In this document: piece by piece, positions 2,521 to 63,304 of the stretch | How the letters are laid out: every line of letters starts with the position of its first letter | How positions within the stretch are numbered: the first letter of the stretch is position 1 | NCBI GenBank assembly: GCA_965205335.1 | Contig: OZ242164.1 | Coordinates: 1,135,750-1,199,749, forward strand | Source: Candidatus Woesearchaeota archaeon | GTDB taxonomy: Archaea > Nanobdellota > Nanobdellia > Woesearchaeales > UBA583 | Reading direction: 5' to 3' | Length of the DNA: 64,000 bases | Position numbers and translations under genes: made by a program | The notes under the pieces: model-generated | Told to the model about the DNA's origin: nothing | The model's input: the letters and a program-made list of their open reading frames with translations, nothing else | The model's database searches: none

Positions 2521-2868
2521 CTAATGCTCATTTTGTTTGTCTTTATCTTTGGGGATTTTAATTTCTTTATGAGGCAGAAGAGCTGCTTCAAGAATTTTTG
2601 AGCGTATTTCCTGTGTGCGTCTTAATTGTTCAATATAACTTGCAGATTCAATTAGTTCATCAAAGAATTCCATTATGTTTTCATCTTTTATTACTGAACC
2701 ATCTTTAAAACTCATACTGATAATGTAGTTTTTCTCATCACAATCTATTAGAAAGTAATAGTCTTCTAATTTTACATAACAAGCCTGAACCAGAATTTCT
2801 TTGGGATAAATGTTCTTGTTGATTTTAATAGTTGCAGTTTTGCCATCAATTGAATAATTTTTCTTCAT
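2521..2868 (-). CDS. hxsD: His-Xaa-Ser system protein HxsD-like
   Basis: IN..IYP.E....A.Y....D.Y.LID and EF..ELI.......T.EIR..IL..AL pattern; adjacent to HxsB-like radical SAM. Confidence 0.75.
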   Translation of the reverse strand: MKKNYSIDGKTATIKINKNIYPKEILVQACYVKLEDYYFLIDCDEKNYIISMSFKDGSVIKDENIMEFFDELIESASYIEQLRRTQEIRSKILEAALLPHKEIKIPKDKDKQNEH

Positions 2869-2918
2869 GATAGTACATAAAAAGAAATGTTTATAAATAT
2901 TCTTCTTGTGGAAATAAT

Positions 2919-4343
2919 ATGTTTCTCAAAAAAGAAGGAGAAGATCACATTCTGAATTTTTATAGGCATAAATTATATGATAAAAAAAGAAATCTGTATC
3001 TTTTAACAGTTGATGATGGAAATTTCATATTTTTAAATAAGGAAAGTATGACAAATCTGAAAAAGGGATTGGTAACAAATGAAGAGATATATGAAAAATT
3101 ATTAGAGAGGGGAATAATTATTAATGATTCAAATTTTAATGATATTGTTAAGAAGACAAGAAAGAGATATGCTTTTCTTATGAATGGAACTTCACTTCAT
3201 ATTGTTATTCCAACGTCAAGGTGTAATCTTGGATGTACTTATTGTTTTGCATCACCTGACCCTATAACTGCCCCTCGTGACGAAAAGGATTTAGATGAGA
3301 AAACGGCAATTAAGATAGTTGATTTTATTATGAATTCTCCGTCTAATGTAATAACTATTGAGTTTCAGGGCGGTGAGGCAACTGCAAGATTTGATTTAGT
3401 AAAAATTATGGCACAACATGCAAAGAAATTAAATGAGAAACTAAAGAAGGATTTGAGATTAACTATTGTTTCAAATTTAACTCTTATGACAGATGATATG
3501 GCAAATTGGTTAATTGATAATGATGTTAGTATTTGCACATCACTTGATGGACCAAGATATGTTCATGATGAAAATAGGTTTATCCATGTAAGAGAGGGGA
3601 AAGAGGTTGGAACTCATGATAAGGTTATTTACTGGATTAAAAGGATAAATGGTTTCTATAAGGAAAAGAAGAAGCAGGGACAAGTTTCTGCTCTTATGAC
3701 TATAACAAAGCACTCTCTTCCTTATTATAAGGAGATAGTTGATGAGTATGTTTCTCTTGGGATTTATTTGCTTGATATAAGGCATTTAACGTTTGTTGGA
3801 AAAGCAACACAGACTACTCTGCCAATTCATTATAGTGAAAATGAGTTTATTGATTTTTATAATAAGTCTTTAGAGTATATGAAGGAGCTTGAAAAGAAGG
3901 GAATTAGAACGGTAGAACGAATGAGGGATATGTATTATACAAAGGTGTTAGTGAATAGACCAACATATCATGCTGATTTTGAAAGTCCATGTGGAGCGGC
4001 AACAGGACAGATTGTATATCATTCAAATGGAGATATTTATACTTGTCATGAAGCGTTAGGGCGTGATGAGTTTAGACTTGGAAATGTGTTTTCTGATTCT
4101 TGGCAGGATATATTCACAAAGGAAGAGACATCTAAAGCTATACTTAATTCAATGCTTGAATCAAATGTTAAATGTGATAGGTGTGTTTTCAAACCATATT
4201 GCGGAACATGTATGGTTGAGAATTTTTATCATTTCGGAAAGTTTAATTTTTATCCAACAAAGACTGCAAAGCATAGTGAGACTATAATGCAGTGCACAAA
4301 GATATTTGATGAGGTTCTGGAAAAGGCACTGAAAGTTGATTAA
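2919..4343 (+). CDS. hxsB: His-Xaa-Ser system radical SAM/SPASM maturase HxsB-like
   Basis: YLLT.D.G..IFL N-terminus, TSLHIVIPT.RCN..C.YC, IEFQGGE, SPCGA..GQ..Y..NGDIYTC, SPASM C..C...PYCG.C. Confidence 0.85.
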   Translation: MFLKKEGEDHILNFYRHKLYDKKRNLYLLTVDDGNFIFLNKESMTNLKKGLVTNEEIYEKLLERGIIINDSNFNDIVKKTRKRYAFLMNGTSLHIVIPTSRCNLGCTYCFASPDPITAPRDEKDLDEKTAIKIVDFIMNSPSNVITIEFQGGEATARFDLVKIMAQHAKKLNEKLKKDLRLTIVSNLTLMTDDMANWLIDNDVSICTSLDGPRYVHDENRFIHVREGKEVGTHDKVIYWIKRINGFYKEKKKQGQVSALMTITKHSLPYYKEIVDEYVSLGIYLLDIRHLTFVGKATQTTLPIHYSENEFIDFYNKSLEYMKELEKKGIRTVERMRDMYYTKVLVNRPTYHADFESPCGAATGQIVYHSNGDIYTCHEALGRDEFRLGNVFSDSWQDIFTKEETSKAILNSMLESNVKCDRCVFKPYCGTCMVENFYHFGKFNFYPTKTAKHSETIMQCTKIFDEVLEKALKVD

Positions 4344-33460: not shown

Positions 33461-34627
33461 ATGACAGATTATGATGATGTAAAAGGGTCAAGTTCGGGGC
33501 TAAATGATGACCCGCTATACAGTATTTCATTTGAAAATGCACGTTTAGAAGAAGAAAACAAGAATCTAAAAAGAACAGTATCATTTTACCAGACAGAACT
33601 TGAAAAATTTCGAACACCACCATTTGTTGTCTCTGAAGTCATTTCTTTAACTAAAAATAACAGAGCAGTTGTCAGATTACCAAACCAAAGTAATTTTGTG
33701 GTAGACATTGCCCAAAACGTTAAAGATTTAAAGGTAGGAGATATGGTTCTAAACGAACAAAAATCCCTTGTTATAATGAGTAAAATTGATTTAACAAAAA
33801 ACTATGCAGTCGAGAATTTCTTAATTGTTAATGACAAACCTGATGTTAGATGGAAAGATATAGGAGGATTATCCAATGAAGTTGAGAAAGTTAAAGAAGT
33901 TTTGGAAATGCCTCTTCTAAAACCACAAAAATTTAAGGAAATTGGTATCACTCCTCCAAAAGGTGTTTTATTACACGGACCCCCTGGAACAGGAAAAACC
34001 ATGATTGCAAAAGCTTTGGCTCAAGAAACAAACTCAACATTTATAGAATTAGTAGGCTCAGAACTTGTTCAGAAATTCATAGGAGAAGGAGCAAAACTTG
34101 TAAAAGATTTATTTGAACTTGCAAGAAAAAAAGGACCAAGCATTATATTCATTGATGAAATTGATGCAATTGGAGCAAGAAGAATTGATACAGGTACATC
34201 AGGAGAAAGGGAAGTCCAGAGAACATTCATGCAACTGCTTGGAGAAATAGATGGATTTGATTCACTTGATAACGTTAAAATAATTGCCGCAACAAACAGA
34301 TTAGACATTTTAGATGAAGCAATACTAAGACCTGGAAGACTTGAAAGACACATTGAAGTTAAAAAGCCAGATGAGAAAGGAAGATATGAGATCTTAAAGA
34401 TTCATACAAGAAGGATGAAATTTTACAAAGGTGTGAATTTAAGTGAAATTGCAGCAAAAACTGAAGAATTTAGTGGAGCAGAACTTAAAGCTCTTACGAC
34501 AGAAGCAGGTTATTTGGCAATAAGAAGAAATGAAAAGAAAATTTCACATAAGGACCTTGAATCCGCTATTGATTTAGTTAAACAAGACGTTCAGGAATAT
34601 GAAATAATAAGTTCTTCATTTAATTAA
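33461..34627 (+). CDS. pan: proteasome-activating nucleotidase PAN
   Basis: Coiled coil + OB; PPKGVLLHGPPGTGKT, GSELVQKFIGEGA, IFIDEIDAIG, EVQRT.MQLL. Confidence 0.95.
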   Translation: MTDYDDVKGSSSGLNDDPLYSISFENARLEEENKNLKRTVSFYQTELEKFRTPPFVVSEVISLTKNNRAVVRLPNQSNFVVDIAQNVKDLKVGDMVLNEQKSLVIMSKIDLTKNYAVENFLIVNDKPDVRWKDIGGLSNEVEKVKEVLEMPLLKPQKFKEIGITPPKGVLLHGPPGTGKTMIAKALAQETNSTFIELVGSELVQKFIGEGAKLVKDLFELARKKGPSIIFIDEIDAIGARRIDTGTSGEREVQRTFMQLLGEIDGFDSLDNVKIIAATNRLDILDEAILRPGRLERHIEVKKPDEKGRYEILKIHTRRMKFYKGVNLSEIAAKTEEFSGAELKALTTEAGYLAIRRNEKKISHKDLESAIDLVKQDVQEYEIISSSFN

Positions 34628-34676
34628 TTAAACATAAAGTCAATATTTTTAAACAAACGAATTTAGTTTATATATA

Positions 34677-35957
34677 ATGGCAGTACCTATTGATGAACAA
34701 ATTGCAAAAACTATAATCTGGATATTATACTTTGTAGGTTTATATTTTTCTCTATTTTGGATTAGTGTTTTCCTTTTTGACCCTCAGCCCAACACACGCA
34801 AAAAAAGAAAAGTCTGGCCCCAAGTTACAATTGTTATGCCAATGTATAATGAAGAAAAACACGTTGAGTGGACAATGGATAGTGTCTTTGCAATGGATTA
34901 TCCTCAAAAAAAACTCAAAGTAATTGCTGTTAATGATGGCTCTACTGATAGTACACTAAAAATCCTGAAACGACTTAAAGAAGAATATGATTTTAAAATA
35001 ATTAATAAAAAAAACGGCGGAAAGCATACTGCACTTAATGCCGCTCTAAAACATATAAACACTCCCTACTTTGCATGCTTGGATGCTGATTGTTATGTTG
35101 AAGCTGATGCAATGAAGAAATTAATTGAAGAATTTGACGAAGAAGATGTTGGAGCAGTTATGCCTATAATGAAAGTCCATAAACCAAAAAATATTTTGCA
35201 AAGAGTTCAATGGCTTGAATATACTATGAATATTTTCTACAAACATATAATGGGCAAACTTGATTGCATTCATGTAACCCCGGGTCCCTTATCTACATAC
35301 AAAACATCAGCAGTAAAAAAATTAGGAGGATTTAGAAAAGGACATATGACAGAGGATTTAGAAATGGCATTAAGACTTCAGGACAATAACTACAAACTAA
35401 AACAATCCCTTGATGCAATAGTTTATACTGCGGTGCCTAAAACAACCAAAGCATTTATTTCTCAAAGGACAAGATGGTATCAGGGCACACTGCTTAATGT
35501 GCGAGATTACAAACACTTCCTCTTTAACAAAAAATATGGGGATTTTGGAATGTATCATATGCCCTTGGTTGCAGCAACAGGATTACTTGCTCTTCTTGGA
35601 GTTTTAACAGTAATCTATTTATTTTTCAAAGGAACATACTTTACAATAAAAAGATGGTATCTAACTAATTTTGATTTTGCAACCTATATCTCAAATTGGA
35701 GTTTTAACACAACTCTGCTTGATTTAAGTTGGCAGACTTTATTTTTGGTTACTGTATTATTATTATTAGTGTTTGTCATAATGTATCTATCTTTTATTGG
35801 AACAAAAGAGAAAGTAAATGTTTTAAACAGCATTAAATATTACTTTATGTTCATATACTATTTTTTCATATATAAACTCATTATGGGATATATATGGGCA
35901 AAAGTTGTTTTAAAGCTTAGTTTGAAAAAAGATAACAAATGGGAAAAAGTAAATTAA
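34677..35957 (+). CDS. processive GT2 glycosyltransferase (PgaC/cellulose-synthase-like)
   Basis: DGSTD, GGK..ALN, DAD, TED, QRTRW; flanking TM helices. Confidence 0.9.
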   Translation: MAVPIDEQIAKTIIWILYFVGLYFSLFWISVFLFDPQPNTRKKRKVWPQVTIVMPMYNEEKHVEWTMDSVFAMDYPQKKLKVIAVNDGSTDSTLKILKRLKEEYDFKIINKKNGGKHTALNAALKHINTPYFACLDADCYVEADAMKKLIEEFDEEDVGAVMPIMKVHKPKNILQRVQWLEYTMNIFYKHIMGKLDCIHVTPGPLSTYKTSAVKKLGGFRKGHMTEDLEMALRLQDNNYKLKQSLDAIVYTAVPKTTKAFISQRTRWYQGTLLNVRDYKHFLFNKKYGDFGMYHMPLVAATGLLALLGVLTVIYLFFKGTYFTIKRWYLTNFDFATYISNWSFNTTLLDLSWQTLFLVTVLLLLVFVIMYLSFIGTKEKVNVLNSIKYYFMFIYYFFIYKLIMGYIWAKVVLKLSLKKDNKWEKVN

Positions 35958-35999
35958 ATACAAGATATATTTTTAAATGAACATAATTTTCTTTTTACT

Positions 36000-36710
36000 A
36001 TGAGAGAGAGAGTTAAAGTTATCAGATACCTTGGAGTTTTATTTTTAACCATTTTAATCTTTGTTATTGGAATTTTCTTAGGTAGTAGTGTTGAAGAACT
36101 TAGAGTTGAGAATTTGTATAATCAACTTCAAGAGCAGGACTTAGAATACCAGACAGTTGTTACAGAAAGTACATATATTGATTTTTTAGTTTCTTCAAAA
36201 GAGGAAAGGGGAAACATATCATGTGATGCAATAAAGGGAACTTATTATACAAGTATTGGCAATTTAGATGATGCCAGACTTAAACTTGAGAATTATATTA
36301 ATTTTGGCAAAGTTCGTGAAGATGAATTTTACAGACTAAGAGAACACTATTCAAATGTTCAGATTAATTATTGGATATTAGCAAACAGAATTAGTTCACT
36401 ATGTGATTCTAATATGAATACAATCTTATATTTTTATGCAGATAAGAAAAAGTGCCCTGCTTGTGAAGATCAAGGAATTCATTTAAGTTATGTTAAACAA
36501 AGATTAGGAGATGATATCTTAATATTTGCCTTTGATTCGCAAAGTTCAAGTGGCGTACTTAAACTGCTTTCCCAGAGATACTCAGTAAGTGAGAGAGAAC
36601 TTCCTGTTCTTGTAATTAATAATGAAATATATGGCTTTATGCATAATTCTCTGATTTTTAAGATTTTATGTGAAAAAGGACTTGACAACGAAGAAGTTTG
36701 TAATTCTTAA
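36000..36710 (+). CDS. membrane-anchored thioredoxin-like protein
   Basis: N-terminal TM; ILYFY...CPAC..QG..L; P.LVIN. Confidence 0.7.
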   Translation: MRERVKVIRYLGVLFLTILIFVIGIFLGSSVEELRVENLYNQLQEQDLEYQTVVTESTYIDFLVSSKEERGNISCDAIKGTYYTSIGNLDDARLKLENYINFGKVREDEFYRLREHYSNVQINYWILANRISSLCDSNMNTILYFYADKKKCPACEDQGIHLSYVKQRLGDDILIFAFDSQSSSGVLKLLSQRYSVSERELPVLVINNEIYGFMHNSLIFKILCEKGLDNEEVCNS

Positions 36711-36842
36711 TTATTCCAGTTAAAAGTTGATGTAATATATGCTTGTTAAACAATTTCAATATTCTTTAAACATCAACAGTTTTACTCTTTTATATGTTAT
36801 TTATTAGGAAAAAAGAATAAATTTTATATACAAGAGATTTTA

Positions 36843-37799
36843 TTGAATTGTATGGAAAATTCTCAGGATATAGGGACATTTATATTAGGTTTAACAAAAC
36901 TTATAGAAAAACCATTTATGAAGGAAGTAAGATTTGATTACAAAGGTTTCTTTAAACTCCTATCAAAAAATAAAGAACTCCCATTATTGCAAGTTATTTT
37001 GAACCAGAATCAGATAAATTTTAACTCGGGATATAAAGTAGATTCAAATGAAACTCTTGAAAGAATATTTAAGCAGATACTTGTCAAACTCATAGAGAAA
37101 GATAGTATCACCTTAAAGAATGAAAATTTAGAGGACATAGTTTCAACATTATTTCAAAAAATAAAAACCCTAAACTTTGAGGACTTAATCAAACTCTTAT
37201 TATCTCGAGTAAACCTATCAAATTTTGAAAGATTAAAACTCTTCTTATTAAAGGATCTCAATCTGAGCGGTAAAATATCTTTAATAACACTTGTAGGAGC
37301 ATTTTCTTTTTCTTCTGGATGTGCAAATGATGCAACTCACACAGGATATAATAACACACCAAATACACATGTAGAAGAAGTCGTTGAAGAAAGCACTACT
37401 CATGGAGTGCTACAAGAACTAACACAATGGCAAAAGGAAATATGGGGAATTGGAGAAAAAAATGGAATGGATGAATGGTACTTTGAACAGATTCCTAATT
37501 TAACTGATAATCAGGCTTGGGCGTTTAAGGTAGGAGTAGAGAATAAGAAGGAAAGGTGGTACTTTGAATTAGTTCTTAAAAATCCTAATTTAACTGATTA
37601 TCAGGCTTTGGCATTTAATGCAGGAGTAGAGAGTAAGAAGGAGAGGTGGTACTTTGAACAAATTCCTAATTTAACTGATAATCAGGCTTGGGCATTTAAT
37701 AAGGGAGTAGAGAGTAAGAAGGAAAGGCGGTACTTTGAATTAGTTCTTGAAAATCCTAATTTAACTTCATCTCGTTTTATGGAATTAATGCAGGAGTAG
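36843..37799 (+). CDS. hypothetical protein with internal lipobox-like SSGC and C-terminal 27/30-aa tandem repeats
   Basis: WYFE..PNLTD.QA.AF..GVE.KKER repeats. Confidence 0.7.
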   Translation: MNCMENSQDIGTFILGLTKLIEKPFMKEVRFDYKGFFKLLSKNKELPLLQVILNQNQINFNSGYKVDSNETLERIFKQILVKLIEKDSITLKNENLEDIVSTLFQKIKTLNFEDLIKLLLSRVNLSNFERLKLFLLKDLNLSGKISLITLVGAFSFSSGCANDATHTGYNNTPNTHVEEVVEESTTHGVLQELTQWQKEIWGIGEKNGMDEWYFEQIPNLTDNQAWAFKVGVENKKERWYFELVLKNPNLTDYQALAFNAGVESKKERWYFEQIPNLTDNQAWAFNKGVESKKERRYFELVLENPNLTSSRFMELMQE

Positions 37800-37835
37800 A
37801 GAATAAGAAGGAAAGGTGGTACTTTGAATTAGTTC
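37476..37835 (+). repeat. tandem repeat, units of 81/90/81/89 bp plus a partial unit
   Basis: (T/C)GGTACTTTGAA at 37476, 37557, 37647, 37728, 37817. Confidence 0.9.
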
Positions 37836-38037
37836 AGGAATAGATGCACTTGGAGATTTGATGAGAACCATGCGAGAGTTTGTATCAGAAGGAAAATTAG
37901 TGACAAACCCAAGCATATTCGTTACTGGCGATGATGGTAAACCTATTAAACTTATTTAGCAAAAATACAAATACAAATAAATTAACCTCTGTACTTAAAT
38001 ACAAAACTATTTATATATTAAAAACATGCAGACAATT

Positions 38038-38165
38038 AGGTCAGGTCTATGATTCAAGTATCAAAACCTAAGACTATATGATCTTAAATGTGTGGGTATT
38101 GCAAAAGCAATATTATCTATGACTAAATAAAAAATCTAAAGTTTGCTGTCTTAGGTACCTGACCT
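38038..38165. ncRNA. candidate structured RNA or palindromic element (nested stems)
   Basis: AGGTCAGGT/ACCTGACCT, ACCTAAGAC/GTCTTAGGT, TATTGC-AAAA-GCAATA; TTTATATA box ~28 nt upstream on +. Confidence 0.4.
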
Positions 38166-38167
38166 CA

Positions 38168-40453
38168 TTATTTATCTTCTTTATTAATGTACTTTTGAAT
38201 ATAACTATTATACCAATGTTCAAATTCTAAAAATATCTTTTTTGAATCAAGTACTCCATATTCATTATTAATTCTCTCAGAGATTTTATGAAACTGATCA
38301 TTTGCATCAATAACAGGTTTTGCTTCAAGTATCTCATCACATTTGTGCTTTATAGAACAATCTACCTGCAATTTCTTTACCTTAACTCTTAACTGTATAT
38401 TATCCCATATGGCATCCCAGTTTCCTGCCCACTGCTTAACATTTCCACCTATTGCTTTTAAAATATCAGAATCACCATTAATCAAATCATCTGTCATCTC
38501 TAACTTGTCTTCTATTGAATTATATTTAAACAAATCCCCAAACCCATTCTCAAGCATGGGATCATTCTCCCAGTGCTTCTTAACCTCAGTTATCTGAGTG
38601 ATTCTACGAAACCTGTGCAGTCCATCCGATGACTTAACAGGATTTGCAATAATCACTAAATCAGTAGCTTTAAACGAAGTATTAGGAACTTTCAAATCAT
38701 TTACTAATCTATCATACACACCAAAAGGAGAATCTCCATGAATAGTTCCTGCAACAACATTTGCCAAAGCCCCAATCCGCATAGCTTCATATAACGCAAG
38801 AGCTTCTGTGCTTCTTACTTCTCCCACAATTAAACAGGAATCTCCTAGTCTTAAAGTGGATCTAATCCCCATATCGGCAGACATGCCCTCCTTACCAATT
38901 GACAATGCTGACCTAACTCTCATAGATTGGAGGTTATACCCTAAATCTGCAAGTTGAAGAGTTGGAAGTTCAAGTGTATCCTCAATAGTTATAATTCTGT
39001 ATTTTCTCATAATTTCAATCATAACAGCTACTAAAAAAGAAGACTTACCCGAACCTCTTGTACCTGCTATTAGAATAGTTCTTGCACCATCAATTATAAA
39101 TGAAAGAAGTCCTGCCGCATCAGAAGTAATCATATTATTTTTGATAAACAGAGGAAGAGTCCAAGGTTTATCTCTGTGCCTTCTAAAAGAAAACCCAATC
39201 CCATAAGGATTTAATGGCTTCCCAACAGCAGAAACCCTTGCTCTTGCTTCTGGAGTTTCAATTTCGGCATCAAGAAGAGGATTTGATGCATCAAAAGGTT
39301 TCCCTGAAATCATTCTAAGCCTTGATGCCCATCCCTCTATTTCATCCTGTTCAGGAATAATATTTGTTTTACAATCTTCAAAATCTGAATGTGTTAAAAA
39401 TATGGGTGTCCTATTTGCAGGAGAATTTATTGAGATATCCTGTATCTTTTCATCTTCCAAAAGAATTTCAACAAGTCCAAACCCAACAGTATATCTTATA
39501 AGAATATGTGCCAAATCATCAACCTCTCTATGATTCAGTTTTATATTTTTGAACTCAGCAATTTCTTCGACCAAATCCTTTGAAATATTATAAAATATCT
39601 CTCTTAGTTTAGTGGGATCTATAAAATCGGACGATTCAGGTTTATGTTCAGAGATTACTTCCTTTGCAAGATTTAAAATATTATACTTATCTTCAGACAG
39701 AGTAAACTCAAGAGGTATAATATGATATAAATTATATGCTTCATTATCCATCTCAAAAATTGTAACTTTAGCATCAAGCAGATTATACGAATCAACTTCT
39801 TTGGCTTCAATTGGAATCCTCTTTTGAAGTGATGTATATATAAAATTTGGTTTTATATTTGCCTCAAAGAATTTTTTGTATATCTCTCTGCTTCCAATTT
39901 TATGTCCAAAAAGTTCATTTTTGCTTAATTTGATTATAGTCATATCTTCAAGCTTTTCGCCAATATATTTTAATGCTCTCTCATACTTAGAATCAACTTC
40001 TTCACATTTATTATTTAAGTGGGTTTTTTCAAATTTATAATCTCTTAGTTTTCTCTTTATCCTAACATAAGCTCCTATTGGGTCTGAGGTTAGACTTTTC
40101 ACAATCGTATTCTGTAAGAAAGTATATCTATTAAAAAAAAGTTTGACACATTCCTCATCTTTATTAATTAGTTCTCCTGATGTAAAAAGTTCTTTTTGTT
40201 TGCTTAGCAAAGAATACATCTGTGCAATTTCATTTAAATGTTTAACTTGTTCAAAGTCATATTCGTAATTTTTATTATGAACAAATATTATTTTGGTTAT
40301 AGATGGTGTTTGAACTAATCTCTTAATTACATCGCGCATAACAATTCCATCATCCTCAATTGTGGGGAAGTTTTCTTTTCCAAGATAGTTTAATTTAAGA
40401 ATGTTTTCAACTCCATGTTTTATTATTTCAAAGTCCTTATCTTTTGAGAACAT
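38168..40453 (-). CDS. type II/IV secretion (pilus assembly) ATPase, TadA/FlaI/VirB11-like
   Basis: AGTRGSGKSS, TIEDTLEL, LRLGDS.LI.GEVR..EA..LYEAMR, GTIHG. Confidence 0.92.
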   Translation of the reverse strand: MFSKDKDFEIIKHGVENILKLNYLGKENFPTIEDDGIVMRDVIKRLVQTPSITKIIFVHNKNYEYDFEQVKHLNEIAQMYSLLSKQKELFTSGELINKDEECVKLFFNRYTFLQNTIVKSLTSDPIGAYVRIKRKLRDYKFEKTHLNNKCEEVDSKYERALKYIGEKLEDMTIIKLSKNELFGHKIGSREIYKKFFEANIKPNFIYTSLQKRIPIEAKEVDSYNLLDAKVTIFEMDNEAYNLYHIIPLEFTLSEDKYNILNLAKEVISEHKPESSDFIDPTKLREIFYNISKDLVEEIAEFKNIKLNHREVDDLAHILIRYTVGFGLVEILLEDEKIQDISINSPANRTPIFLTHSDFEDCKTNIIPEQDEIEGWASRLRMISGKPFDASNPLLDAEIETPEARARVSAVGKPLNPYGIGFSFRRHRDKPWTLPLFIKNNMITSDAAGLLSFIIDGARTILIAGTRGSGKSSFLVAVMIEIMRKYRIITIEDTLELPTLQLADLGYNLQSMRVRSALSIGKEGMSADMGIRSTLRLGDSCLIVGEVRSTEALALYEAMRIGALANVVAGTIHGDSPFGVYDRLVNDLKVPNTSFKATDLVIIANPVKSSDGLHRFRRITQITEVKKHWENDPMLENGFGDLFKYNSIEDKLEMTDDLINGDSDILKAIGGNVKQWAGNWDAIWDNIQLRVKVKKLQVDCSIKHKCDEILEAKPVIDANDQFHKISERINNEYGVLDSKKIFLEFEHWYNSYIQKYINKEDK

Positions 40454-58055: not shown

Positions 58056-58893
58056 TTAATACTTAAATATTCCTCCTATATTTGTTGGGTCTGTAAATGT
58101 ACGGACTTGTGAATTTGTAGATTTTTCTATTTTTTTTGCTAATTCATCTAATTTTTCTCTGCTGGTTGCATTGAGATTAAATCCTGGAAATGGTTGATAC
58201 AACAAAGGGTATAAATGAACCTCACAGGGTTTTATTTCTTTAATTCTCTCTTCATAATCTCTCAAATTTTCCTCAGATAAATTACCGTCTTTTCCACCCA
58301 CAACAATAGTTTGAATTATCCTTTTTTTTTACAGGCGCATCTCTAAGTTCTCTGATTAAATCCCTAAATTTTACTCCCCTTGGTCTATTAAACCTCTCAA
58401 ATGTTTCTTCATTTCCAGCATCTAATTTCATAAAAACACAATCAAGCGGTGCCAAATTTTTATCTTTTAATCTTGTTCCATTAGTAAAGAGGGATGTTGA
58501 TATTCCAGATCTATAAGCATCTCTCATCTCTACTATTAAGTCAACAATTTCATCAAAATATGGACTTAAAGTGGGCTCTGTTGGTCCACTTAAAGTTATA
58601 GAGTCGTAGTGTTCATTAGAAGATAATCTTTCCACTAAGCCTTTTCTGATTTCTTCAGGAGTAGACATCCTAATTCTTCCTTTTTTTATTGATTCATCTA
58701 AACTTTCTGCTCCATATTGACAATAAATACAACTAAAATTGCAACCAAATCCTCCTTGAATCGGGTTGATACCTAAAGACAAACCTAATCTCCTTGAATT
58801 TATTGGTCCGTAAACTACACCTTGCTTTATTTCTTTAAAATATTTTCCAGCCTTTTGGGGTTTCCACCAGTCAGTTCTAATATTCCTATCCAT
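58056..58893 (-). pseudogene. radical SAM protein split by a 1-nt frameshift in an A9 run
   Basis: VYGP..SRRLG.SLGIN, CNFSCIYCQ.G, KLDAG....F...NRP; removing one A at 58322-58330 gives ..VKKRIIQTIVVGGKDGN.. joining both ORFs. Confidence 0.85.
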
Positions 58894-59033
58894 AAAAAGA
58901 GTAAGAAACGGATCTATAAAATAATTGTCTTCCCCTAAGGGGGTTGAAATAGAAAGAATTAAATATACAAAAATATACCAATAATTATGTATGAAACACT
59001 ATTGAAAGAAATTGGATTAACTAATGGAGAAAC

Positions 59034-60040
59034 GGCTCTGTTCAGTTTTGGAAGGATAGATAATATTTAAAAACTTTCCTCAACAGTGGTACTGGTTGTT
59101 TTTAGGGGTAGTTAATAATTAACTCCCAGAATATATCTTTATTGATAATTTATTTCATTAATTAATATCCCCTTTCTATATTCTCCTGAACTTATTATAT
59201 TCCCATCTTCATCATAAACTGTACCCTTACCATCTCCTCTTTTATATAATACTCCACTTCTTAATGTTCCTTCTATTACTTTCTGTATATTTCCATTCTC
59301 CCAGTAAACTTTTACTTTTCCTTCTCCTCTTAAAAATCCGTTTTTAAAAGTTCCCTCTTCTACTCTTTTAACATTTCCATTCTCATAGTAAAATGTTACT
59401 TTTCCTTCTCCTGTAAATTCTCCAAATGTATTTAATGCTACTTCTATTACTGACATTTTATTTCCATTCTTATAATAATACGTACCTGTTCCTTCTCCAC
59501 TTAATTTTTCAAACGCATAAAATTCTCTTTCTCCTACATACAATATATTTCCATTCTCATAGTATGTTGTTATTTTTACTCCTTTCATATAACCATCTTT
59601 AAATGTTCCTTCCATTACTTCCTTTATATTTCCATTTTCATAGTAATATGTTATATTTACTTCTCCTTCTTGTAATTCTCCAGACCTATTAAATATTCCA
59701 TATATTACTCTTTCAACATTTCCATAATCATCATAATATATTTTTTCTTTTTTTTCCTCATTTTGTTTGTTCTCCAAGTCTTCAGGTTGTTCTATGTTTC
59801 CATCTTCCTCATAAATCATTGCTTTCCCATCAGTAATATTAGAGCCTCTACTTTCAAAAACTTGTTCCCCATTTGTTTGTGGTTCACAACCTCCTAAAAA
59901 TAATAATCCCGTTACTCCAAATATTATTGTCAATATTATTTCTATTCTTTTAGTCTTTGTCACTTTGTTAATTAATAATGTTTTAGTCTTTTTATATTTT
60001 GTTATAAAAATTATATATCCCTCTCAAATTGAACAGAACC
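59034..60040. mobile_element. 1007-bp non-autonomous cargo element (no transposase)
   Basis: TIR GGCTCTGTTCAGTTTTGGAAGGATAGATAA vs rc GGTTCTGTTCAATTTGAGAGGGATATATAA (24/30); perfect 9-bp TSD TGGAGAAAC (59025-59033, 60041-60049). Confidence 0.93.
59139..59963 (-). CDS. MORN-variant/YwqK-like repeat lipoprotein (cargo)
   Basis: LLFLGG|C lipobox; G..T.YYENGN....EG.F..G repeats. Confidence 0.85.
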   Translation of the reverse strand: MTKTKRIEIILTIIFGVTGLLFLGGCEPQTNGEQVFESRGSNITDGKAMIYEEDGNIEQPEDLENKQNEEKKEKIYYDDYGNVERVIYGIFNRSGELQEGEVNITYYYENGNIKEVMEGTFKDGYMKGVKITTYYENGNILYVGEREFYAFEKLSGEGTGTYYYKNGNKMSVIEVALNTFGEFTGEGKVTFYYENGNVKRVEEGTFKNGFLRGEGKVKVYWENGNIQKVIEGTLRSGVLYKRGDGKGTVYDEDGNIISSGEYRKGILINEINYQ

Positions 60041-61032
60041 TGGAGAAACAAAGGTTTATCTGTCTCTAATTAGGATGGGTGAGAGTACAGTAGGTCCTAT
60101 AGCAAAAGAGGCAGATGTATCACTTTCTAAAATCTATGAAATACTTGAAAACTTAATAAAAAAAGGATTAGTTAGCCATATACTAAAAAATAACACAAAA
60201 TATTTCTTAGCAACTGACCCTGAGAGATTAATTGATTATCTAGAAAGAAAAAAGAAAGAAATTATGGATTCAGAAAATCAAATAAAAGAAATCTTGCCTT
60301 TATTAAAAGCTCAAAAGGAGAAAAATGAAGGAAAAACTAAAGCAACACTGTATGAAGGTTTTAGGGGGATAAAAAGTTTTTATGAATCTGTATTGAGAGA
60401 TTCAAAATCAAAAGAAGAAATATTTGTTATTGGCCTTCCAAGATATGCAACGGAAAGATATGAAGGATATTTTTTAGATTGGAATAAGAGAAGATCTAAA
60501 AAAGGGGTGAGAATAAAATTAATTTTTAACTATGATGCTAAAGATTTAGGCAAAAAAAGAGAAAGAATAAAATTAACAGAAGTTAGATATCTAACTAAAG
60601 AGTTAATAACCCCTGCTTGGATATTAATTTACAGTAAAGGGGTAGCAACGATACACCTCACAAAAGATCCAATATGCACATTTATTAAAGATGAAGAAGT
60701 GGTAAAAAGTTACAAAAACTTTTTTAATTTGCTTTGGGATATCTCAAACACAAGATAGCTTAATTAAGTCCAGCCACTTATTAACTCCTAACCTTAATTG
60801 AGCAATCGCAATTTCTGCAGGTGTTCTTTTTCCCGAAGACATGTGTTTTCTATTAAAATTATAGTTAATCTGTCCAAAATGCAAATCTACACGATGGGAT
60901 AAGCCACCAAGAAAGAAGAAATAATTTTTTTGAGTCGGATAACTCCAGCTTACGTTACAATGTAAGTTAATCAAAAAACTTATATATCATATTTTTCAAA
61001 GAATTTTTAAATACACAAAGAAAACAAAAAAT

Positions 61033-62856: not shown

Positions 62857-63304
62857 TCTCATTTAGAACTATAAAAACTGCTGCAATTGTTAAATAAAAA
62901 TCAGCAATATTAAAAACAAAAAAGCCCTCAATTACAATAAAATCACGGACAAATCCAAAAAATATTCTATCAAACAAATTTCCAATCAAACCCGAAATTA
63001 AAAAAACATAAACAAAAAAGAGCATGCAGTTTTTCTTGAAATACTCCTGCTTGTAAAACATAATAGCTAAAACAACAATAGATAAAACAATAATTAAAAG
63101 ATTATAATACTGAGTATTTGAGAAAATCCCAAAAGCAGAACCATAATTTATAACATAATTGATATTTATAAAAAACCTATCAAAAAATGACTTATTCATA
63201 AAAAAAGATTTAGTTATTAAATCAATGCATACTAAAATTACAATAATCAGAATAGAAAATCCATTGAATTTCCCTTTAATCAAGTTGTTGCAGAGTTTCA
63301 CCAT
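62840..63304 (-). CDS. lspA: lipoprotein signal peptidase (signal peptidase II)
   Basis: D..TK, N.G.AFG, G..GN..DR..G.V.DFI, FN.AD. Confidence 0.88.
   Translation of the reverse strand: MVKLCNNLIKGKFNGFSILIIVILVCIDLITKSFFMNKSFFDRFFININYVINYGSAFGIFSNTQYYNLLIIVLSIVVLAIMFYKQEYFKKNCMLFFVYVFLISGLIGNLFDRIFFGFVRDFIVIEGFFVFNIADFYLTIAAVFIVLNEIISHQ

Follow-up and report, generated by a model that had tools for sequence, protein, structure and literature searches.

A lipoprotein gene within a transposase-free insertion cassette, probably of an IS6-like lineage, that splits a TrmB-family gene in a small archaeal genome

Near the end of the 64,000-nucleotide stretch of contig OZ242164.1 that was analysed here (the window, in whose coordinates positions are given unless the genome is named), a gene of the TrmB family is interrupted by a 1007-bp element at 59034-60040, which is bounded by inverted repeats and carries the gene for a putative lipoprotein and no transposase. 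The host genome consists of one contig of 1,199,749 bases with 30.9% G+C. The window encodes L31e, S19e, MCM, RFC large subunit, RadA, PAN and XerA. Relatives of the host proteins carry the labels Nanoarchaeia, Woesearchaeota or DPANN, which suggests that the host is a DPANN-type archaeon.

A repeat finder placed 39-nt terminal inverted repeats (TIRs) exactly at the borders of the element, at 59034-59072 on the forward strand (outer bases GGCTCTGTTCAG) and at 60002-60040 on the reverse strand (outer bases read inward, GGTTCTGTTCAATTT); the two arms are imperfect, with 79% complementarity. Both are abutted by a perfect 9-bp target site duplication (TSD), TGGAGAAAC, the copies of which at 59025-59033 and 60041-60049 are 100% identical. 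Inward from the left arm follow, all on the reverse strand, the 3′ untranslated part of the cargo gene downstream of its stop codon (59073-59138), with a short GC-containing hairpin that may act as a terminator; the gene itself (59139-59963), which codes for 274 aa from a GTG start; and its 5′ region (59964-60001), which is AT-rich and contains TATA-like stretches 25-55 nt upstream of the GTG, where the promoter presumably lies. According to the list of open reading frames (ORFs) and a profile search, this gene is the only ORF of at least 40 aa with a family match (MORN_2), and the element contains no transposase domain. An earlier sequence-only reading of the locus had described TIRs of about 30 bp, a perfect 9-bp TSD and, as sole content, a 274-aa lipoprotein with MORN-variant repeats; repeats and duplication are real, the arms being longer than stated, and the single family-matching ORF has a signal peptide with a lipobox. 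The length of 1007 bp given by that reading also stands, while its interval of 59025-60049 takes in both TSD copies.

The 5′ fragment of the TrmB-family gene (58987-59033, forward strand) begins with ATG and is 15 codons plus 2 bases long, placing the insertion point in codon 16. Its reading frame now extends into the element and encodes a peptide of 27 aa before the stop at 59068-59070, and the 3′ part of the gene continues on the same strand at 60050-60758, where the first in-frame ATG, at 60075, opens a 227-aa ORF. The latter matches TrmB (PF01978, E 1.6e-8) over profile positions 21-68 of 68 only. When 59034-60049 was dropped by coordinates in silico, the remaining parts joined into a 251-aa ORF. 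Residues 1-250 of this ORF align with a homologue of 250 aa in a related genome (E 1.4e-74), and it aligns from residue 1-6 with eight other homologues, the conserved N-terminal helix being rebuilt across the junction. Removal of the element does, as the sequence-only reading had it, restore the N-terminus in frame. The remnant match, the full-length alignment of the excised ORF and the 250-aa orthologue at metagenome locus L124 are together what is found in TrmB proteins, with their N-terminal winged-helix domain and total length of about 250 aa.

We searched for the corresponding uninterrupted site in relatives. Among species-representative genomes, TrmB paralogues are present in 35 of 41 (the host's own genome, G000, included), the best only 39-42% identical, and no orthologous empty site was found. 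Scanning metagenome contigs with the downstream TrmB fragment yielded 20 loci, three of them at 82-86% identity, and 14 were examined. In 13 of the 14 the gene is uninterrupted and carries 24-26 residues ahead of the position that corresponds to the ATG at 60075, the last, L129, being matched from residue 17 only. Seven loci are syntenic, with the same divergent radical-SAM gene immediately upstream of TrmB, and none of the 14 contains a match to the cargo. The exact 9-mer TGGAGAAAC occurs once in five of the eight empty-site sequences inspected. Since the orthologous sites are uninterrupted and cargo-free, the cassette arrived after the host lineage had split from these relatives. In the host, the radical-SAM gene divergent from TrmB (58056-58893, reverse strand) is split into ORFs of 203 and 81 aa where nine A occur in a row (about 58323-58331), and its orthologues at L128 and L124 are single 282-aa ORFs; the split may be a real frameshift that makes it a pseudogene or a homopolymer sequencing error.

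The view that a non-autonomous, transposition-derived cassette splits the TrmB gene is upheld by TIRs, TSD, excision and empty sites alike. That the gene was instead broken by an unrelated rearrangement, or that an assembly error placed a resident MORN gene between its halves, is barely credible: the element is bordered exactly by its TIRs, the copies of the 9-bp repeat show no mismatch, excision restores the frame exactly, and the same TSD length recurs at three other loci with related ends. Moreover, an 11.9-kb public contig spans the left junction (58400-59117, 0 differences), as does a 151-nt contig (58925-59075), and the public contigs of the right flank begin at 60012, 29 nt inside the element, below the 31-nt threshold applied; these contigs are not independent support, because the runs probably derive from the sample behind the genome assembly. 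One low-depth contig (depth 3; 59458-60700) joins cargo resembling a second cassette copy, in which 51 nt are skipped, to the TrmB flank. This contig may represent either a strain variant at the site or an assembly cross-over between copies. Nothing was found in favour of the assembly-error explanation, although the contig shows that short-read assemblies can cross between cassette copies.

To which transposase the cassette belongs can be judged from its ends. A genome-wide motif scan revealed many ends beginning with GG[C/T]TCTGT, which fall into two types. [quoted passage not shown] By its copies this IS and MITE family clearly appears to be very active. An exact 8-bp TSD flanks 24 of 36 listed end pairs, and a 9-bp TSD none. 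Type B has the sequence GGTTCTGTT[A/C]A.TTT..., and the left TIR of the cassette is a member of this end family. The outer 10 bases of the cassette ends are 8-10/10 identical to either type, and discrimination comes from further inward: over bases 11-25, agreement is 6-13 of 15 positions with 18 type-B ends and 2-6 of 15 with six type-A ends, and the cassette ends have T at base 9 and A at base 11, like all type-B ends. Type-A elements share with the cassette only the outer GG[C/T]TCTGT.

The sequence-only reading had assigned the ends and the 9-bp repeats to IS5/IS903-like transposases. Elements of the IS903 group give 9-bp duplications, and this group of the IS5 family does resemble the cassette in its GG-starting ends, in addition to the TSD length. 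A derivation from, and mobilization by, the host's own IS5/IS4-type IS nevertheless seems improbable. In its favour, the left-end outer bases of the cassette, GGCTCTGT, match the ends of the 1030-bp IS at 9 of 10 positions, and the IS has evidently been active, given its three 100% identical copies and 29 complete MITE pairs, with two such MITEs flanking the second cassette copy. Every exact TSD of this IS and its MITEs, however, is 8 bp long, as against 9 bp for the cassette, and beyond base 10 the ends are unrelated (2-6/15), the T9 and A11 of the cassette being those of type B. The IS5/IS903 assignment accordingly gives way to the type-B family, and the cassette probably belongs with an IS6-like enzyme because bases 11-25 match type B and its TSD has the type-B length.

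Among 19 candidate type-B pairs in the 1.2-Mb genome, four are flanked by a 9-bp repeat with at most one mismatch, as compared with 0.006 expected; these four complete elements are the cassette and three other loci, each with a 9-bp TSD. The transposase-bearing member lies 1.16 Mb from the cassette, at genome 34174-38741 (4568 bp, exact 9-bp TSD), and carries a restriction-modification system; its contents are a Vsr-like gene, a C5 DNA methyltransferase, an ORF of 238 aa that has no family, and a 355-aa transposase, the gene for which ends 17 nt from the right end. The transposase combines a DDE_Tnp_IS240 domain (PF13610, E 1.8e-21) with an N-terminal SWIM zinc finger (E 8.4e-5). It retains every invariant residue of a 26-sequence family alignment, among them three acidic residues that would fit a DDE triad. 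The right TSD copy of this transposon abuts the end of another type-B element, which starts at genome position 38751. A second transposase copy (genome 440966-442018) is 77% identical, has an in-frame TGA and no recognisable right end, and reads on into a frame of 583-603 aa, called as a 583-aa fusion; other copies are fragments.

The two remaining complete elements are, like the cassette, free of transposase. The larger, at genome 183756-187521 (3766 bp), has a perfect 9-bp TSD and a sole long ORF of 885 aa without a Pfam family, which a protein-language-model search places among S-layer-like proteins from Nanobdellota/Woesearchaeota (score 0.96), a placement that may serve as a lead only; partial copies of this element are found at about 431-433 kb and at 511347-512573 of the genome. 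The smaller, at genome 1044577-1045492 (916 bp), has TIRs identical at 29 of 30 positions, a TSD matching at 8 of 9, and ORFs of 82 and 132 aa. The 132-aa ORF encodes a retropepsin-like aspartyl protease (PF13650, E 1.9e-8), with a weak PADLOC match to PDC-M08B (E 6e-4). At least 10 further solo type-B ends exist in the genome, and flank-based pairing yielded no additional complete element from them.

Taken together, we consider it likely that 59034-60040 is a non-autonomous mobile insertion cassette of an archaeal SWIM/IS6-like lineage carrying one gene for an exported MORN_2 lipoprotein. It has TIRs at both borders, a TSD, a target that is restored on removal and a passenger in place of a transposase; an autonomous relative with the same kind of ends, at genome 34174-38741, does encode a transposase, the identity of the ends being only partial (8-9/10 in the outer bases and 8-9/15 thereafter). 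The 355-aa SWIM/IS6-like protein is thus the candidate cognate transposase by virtue of the shared end family, a match qualified by the same partial identity. In the proposed course of events, this transposase or its 77%-identical paralogue would have bound both cassette ends in trans; staggered cuts 9 bp apart in codon 16 of the TrmB gene would then have been repaired into the TGGAGAAAC duplication. The element may have moved by copy-in, with homologous recombination resolving a cointegrate in the manner of IS26, or by cut-and-paste.

Several observations weigh against this interpretation. The left TIR opens with GGCTCTGT, as IS5-like ends do, and the outer 10 bases do not discriminate between the end types. 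Recognition of the cassette by the enzyme is not assured, because the TIRs are 79% alike and the ends are 8-9/15 identical to those of 34174-38741 over bases 11-25; there is, moreover, just one clearly intact IS6-like transposase gene in the genome. Canonical IS6 elements give 8-bp duplications (PMC7986276). The public contigs bridge the left junction and reach 29 nt into the element on the right, and they include no joint that skips the element, contigs being prone to drop rare variants. Finally, the cargo copies have diverged and the second has no start before residue 51, which may mean a family in decay and not an active one.

This second copy is located at genome 664673-665488 (664673-665312 in a narrower delimitation), and its right end is identical to that of the first copy over 58 nt; over a longer stretch that includes the repeat region, BLASTN gives 87% identity. 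The part downstream of the stop codon is kept, and the left 54 bp including the TIR, one repeat, and a 51-nt stretch bearing the start codon are missing. Within genome 664537-665624 the copy lies between two inverted 128-bp type-A MITEs, and the 8-mer GTGTTCAA is present at all four junctions, which suggests that the target duplication made by the cassette itself received a MITE in each of its two copies. The simplest history would be insertion of the cassette with a 9-bp TSD, entry of a MITE into each duplicate, and then deletion of the left end. In aligned codons the two copies differ by 38 non-synonymous and six synonymous changes, giving a synonymous divergence (dS) of 0.05, a non-synonymous divergence (dN) of 0.076 and a dN/dS of about 1.5, which fits either decay of the second copy or diversifying selection, as the counts are too small to discriminate.

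Such a record raises the question of whether the cassette is a dead relic, left by a single insertion through an IS6-like enzyme (perhaps lost since), with a fixed disruption and a decaying cargo. We regard this as a distinct possibility, if on balance a doubtful one. Just two copies exist, 7-13% diverged, the second truncated, with its left 54 bp, one repeat and the start codon gone; the dN/dS of about 1.5 and the 79% likeness of the TIRs point the same way, as do the solo type-B ends, at least 10 in number, which show the family eroding, and the rarity of the cargo, with no relatives in 40 related genomes and three weak matches among 5.8 billion proteins. The TSD, on the other hand, is perfect, both TrmB fragments are still open, the cargo ORF of the first copy is intact with its signal peptide, and an intact gene for a transposase of the cognate type is present.

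We then looked at the lineage of the transposase in other archaea. Among the 40 related representative genomes, an IS6-like transposase occurs in one, as a degraded copy. In the species-representative genomes at large, no relatives were obtained with the single transposase as query and 439 with an alignment query, of which 80 loci were fetched. Relatives bear the NCBI name "IS6 family transposase". The five closest loci with clear TIRs among the 80 (L041-L045) are from Nanoarchaeia/Woesearchaeota metagenome-assembled genomes (MAGs) and have transposases at 42-44% identity. Their elements are 2416-4482 bp long, with an exact 9-bp TSD in five of five, which supports the 9-bp length independently, a distance of 53-56 nt between transposase and right end, and passenger DNA of 1.3-3.3 kb each; a sixth, L060, is similar, with a TSD matching at 8 of 9 bases. 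Overall, the transposase-bearing elements delimited measure 2416-4928 bp and carry passengers. In the MAG loci these are a PLD-type nuclease and an Eco57I-type methylase in L041, an HNH protein and a D12 methylase in L044, an N6 methylase and a specificity subunit in L060, and ORFs without a family in L042 and L045. L043, on a Woesearchaeota MAG contig, carries a RelA/SpoT-domain protein (4779-5879 of L043, reverse strand) that matches the PADLOC candidate defence system PDC-S33 (E 3.7e-117). A looser scan for TIRs and TSDs picked out 14 of the 80 loci, and in the nine beyond L041-L045 the repeats are weak or the matches, 7 bp long, could be due to chance. True 8-bp duplications may be present at L080 and L110. 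Because end-calling is unreliable for the more distant relatives, the 9-bp rule is claimed for this sub-clade only and not for the protein family.

The cargo protein matches Pfam MORN_2 (PF07661, E 6.4e-14, 50.9 bits against a gathering cut-off of 29.6). Its N-terminus has three basic residues, a hydrophobic stretch and LGGC (residues 23-26, with Cys26), followed by a disordered linker of about 40 aa and an array of predicted MORN_2 beta-hairpins, the repeats being about 84-87 nt long in the gene according to the repeat finder. A single-sequence AlphaFold model is disordered to residue 67 and all-beta from residue 70, with a mean pLDDT of 62.9, that is, moderate confidence; its best Foldseek matches are the MORN1 crystal structures 6t69, 6t4d and 6t68 (E 4e-6 to 2e-5, target TM 0.5-0.57). 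In its MORN_2 score above cut-off and its predicted hairpin array the cargo resembles both the MORN_2/YwqK-type proteins and eukaryotic MORN1. We take the N-terminus ending in LGGC to fit the bacterial lipobox pattern. The host also encodes the corresponding enzymes, both above the Pfam cut-off: Lgt (PF01790, 214.6 bits; genome 1132701-1133414, forward strand), just upstream of the window, and the signal peptidase II LspA (PF01252, 77.3 bits; 62861-63247, reverse strand). Possession of both is unusual for an archaeon, and in the control set the matches were confined to the ten bacterial genomes. A signal peptide with a lipobox cysteine and a host with Lgt and LspA are the sequence features of a bacterial-type lipoprotein. 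The cargo is presumed to be expressed and lipidated, and it may be read as a membrane-anchored extracellular MORN-type binding module.

Relatives of the cargo are scarce: it is absent from all 40 related representative genomes, and among 1288 candidates drawn from 5.8 billion proteins only three weak MORN_2/TonB_C matches were found besides the cargo itself (E 6e-5 to 3e-4). PADLOC returned no family for the cargo, nor for the 885-aa protein or the 82-aa and 238-aa ORFs of the other type-B elements. An antitoxin of the YwqK type is a cytoplasmic protein encoded beside its toxin. The cargo departs from this pattern in having no adjacent toxin gene, an export signal with a lipobox, and no close sequence relatives; a YwqK-type antitoxin or immunity role is consequently not supported, the cassette containing no second or toxin gene, and the same holds for the sequence-only suggestion of an immunity-like cargo.

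As to the target gene, the ATG at 60075 noted in the sequence-only reading does exist and opens the 227-aa ORF. The remnant lacks the first 20 positions of the TrmB profile and thereby probably the first helix of the winged helix. A regulator without its first 24 residues would be expected to have lost its function or to be severely weakened, and a truncated regulator that retains the helix-turn-helix (HTH) core is possible. Other TrmB-domain genes in the genome gave nine matches, four of them above cut-off.

Comparison with known mobile elements shows where the cassette fits and where it does not. MIC231 of Bacillus cereus reportedly derives from IS231, an IS4-family element of a bacterium. 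The cassette is like MIC231 in having IS inverted repeats, no transposase, passenger gene(s) and a presumed dependence on a transposase in trans, and unlike it in its IS6-like ends, its DPANN-type archaeal host and its 9-bp TSD. Mobile insertion cassettes (MICs) have been described as a class of transposable elements that rely on an active transposase (PMC6542083). The IS6 family comprises elements of about 800 bp with 14-bp inverted repeats and 8-bp direct repeats, and includes a longer clade with a zinc finger; two gene-less MITEs (MITEBth2 and MITEHarch3, 227 and 336 bp) and a single passenger-carrying member (tIS), ISDsp3, are described in the available part of PMC7986276. It has been argued that the archaeal and the long zinc-finger forms do not belong in the IS6/IS26 family, and the same source notes a lack of experimental data for them (PMC6807381).

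The first 9 nt of the right cassette end are identical to the IS6/IS26 TIR consensus GGTTCTGTTGCAAA (PMC6807381), as is the type-B start GGTTCTGTT. Type-B ends start with GG and have G7 and lack G10, in which they are the same as the archaeal ISs of PMC6807381. The cognate-type transposase likewise resembles IS6/IS26 in its DDE_Tnp_IS240 domain. In contrast, the lineage is set apart by its 355-aa SWIM transposase, its 9-bp TSD, its passenger-bearing elements of 2416-4928 bp and its gene-carrying, transposase-free derivatives: the 8-bp duplication typical of IS6 is replaced by 9 bp in four of four elements here and five of five in relatives, and the compact single-ORF size of about 700-900 bp is exceeded. 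For IS26, copy-in cointegrate formation followed by homologous recombination can yield an apparent simple insertion with a duplication (PMC6807381, PMC7986276), and the genome under study encodes RadA. The pseudo-compound transposons of IS26 have whole IS copies in direct repeat on both sides, whereas the cassette has short inverted ends only. The host's own DDE_Tnp_1 IS differs from the cassette in its 8-bp TSDs and subterminal sequence. In PMC13343696, a 2026 survey of archaeal ISs, the word "passenger" is absent and "cargo" occurs in the reference list only, and the titles and abstracts searched on mobile insertion cassettes or passenger-bearing ISs contain no archaeal gene-carrying cassette of this sort, although supplements may differ.

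Elsewhere in the window, 2521-4343 holds two genes of a His-Xaa-Ser system, one HxsD-like and the other for a radical SAM maturase that is HxsB-like (TIGR03978, E 7.5e-109, just below cut-off).

What is new here is that an element of a known kind occurs in a lineage, and in an IS group, from which the literature searched contains no prior description of it. Gene-carrying, transposase-free cassettes are known from a few bacterial IS families, and the present loci indicate that whole genes are moved in small archaeal genomes by an IS6-like lineage, either together with its own transposase or in its absence and with a 9-bp TSD, thereby providing a concrete pair of transposase and ends for a group without genetics. 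For the host, the consequence is a TrmB-family regulator minus its first 24 residues, beside a radical-SAM gene that also appears frameshifted. More broadly, we propose tentatively, and with slightly less than even confidence, that the SWIM IS6-like transposases of DPANN archaea form a distinct lineage with a 9-bp TSD, ends of at least 25 nt with a start like the IS6 consensus, and habitual passengers (restriction-modification genes, the candidate defence gene PDC-S33 and others), which sheds transposase-free single-gene cassettes, and that these cassettes, which in the present genome carry the envelope proteins in question, the MORN lipoprotein and the S-layer-like 885-aa protein, would shuttle modules for surface and defence among archaea that are reduced and depend on a host. 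This suggests one possible route by which DPANN-type archaea may exchange envelope and defence genes.

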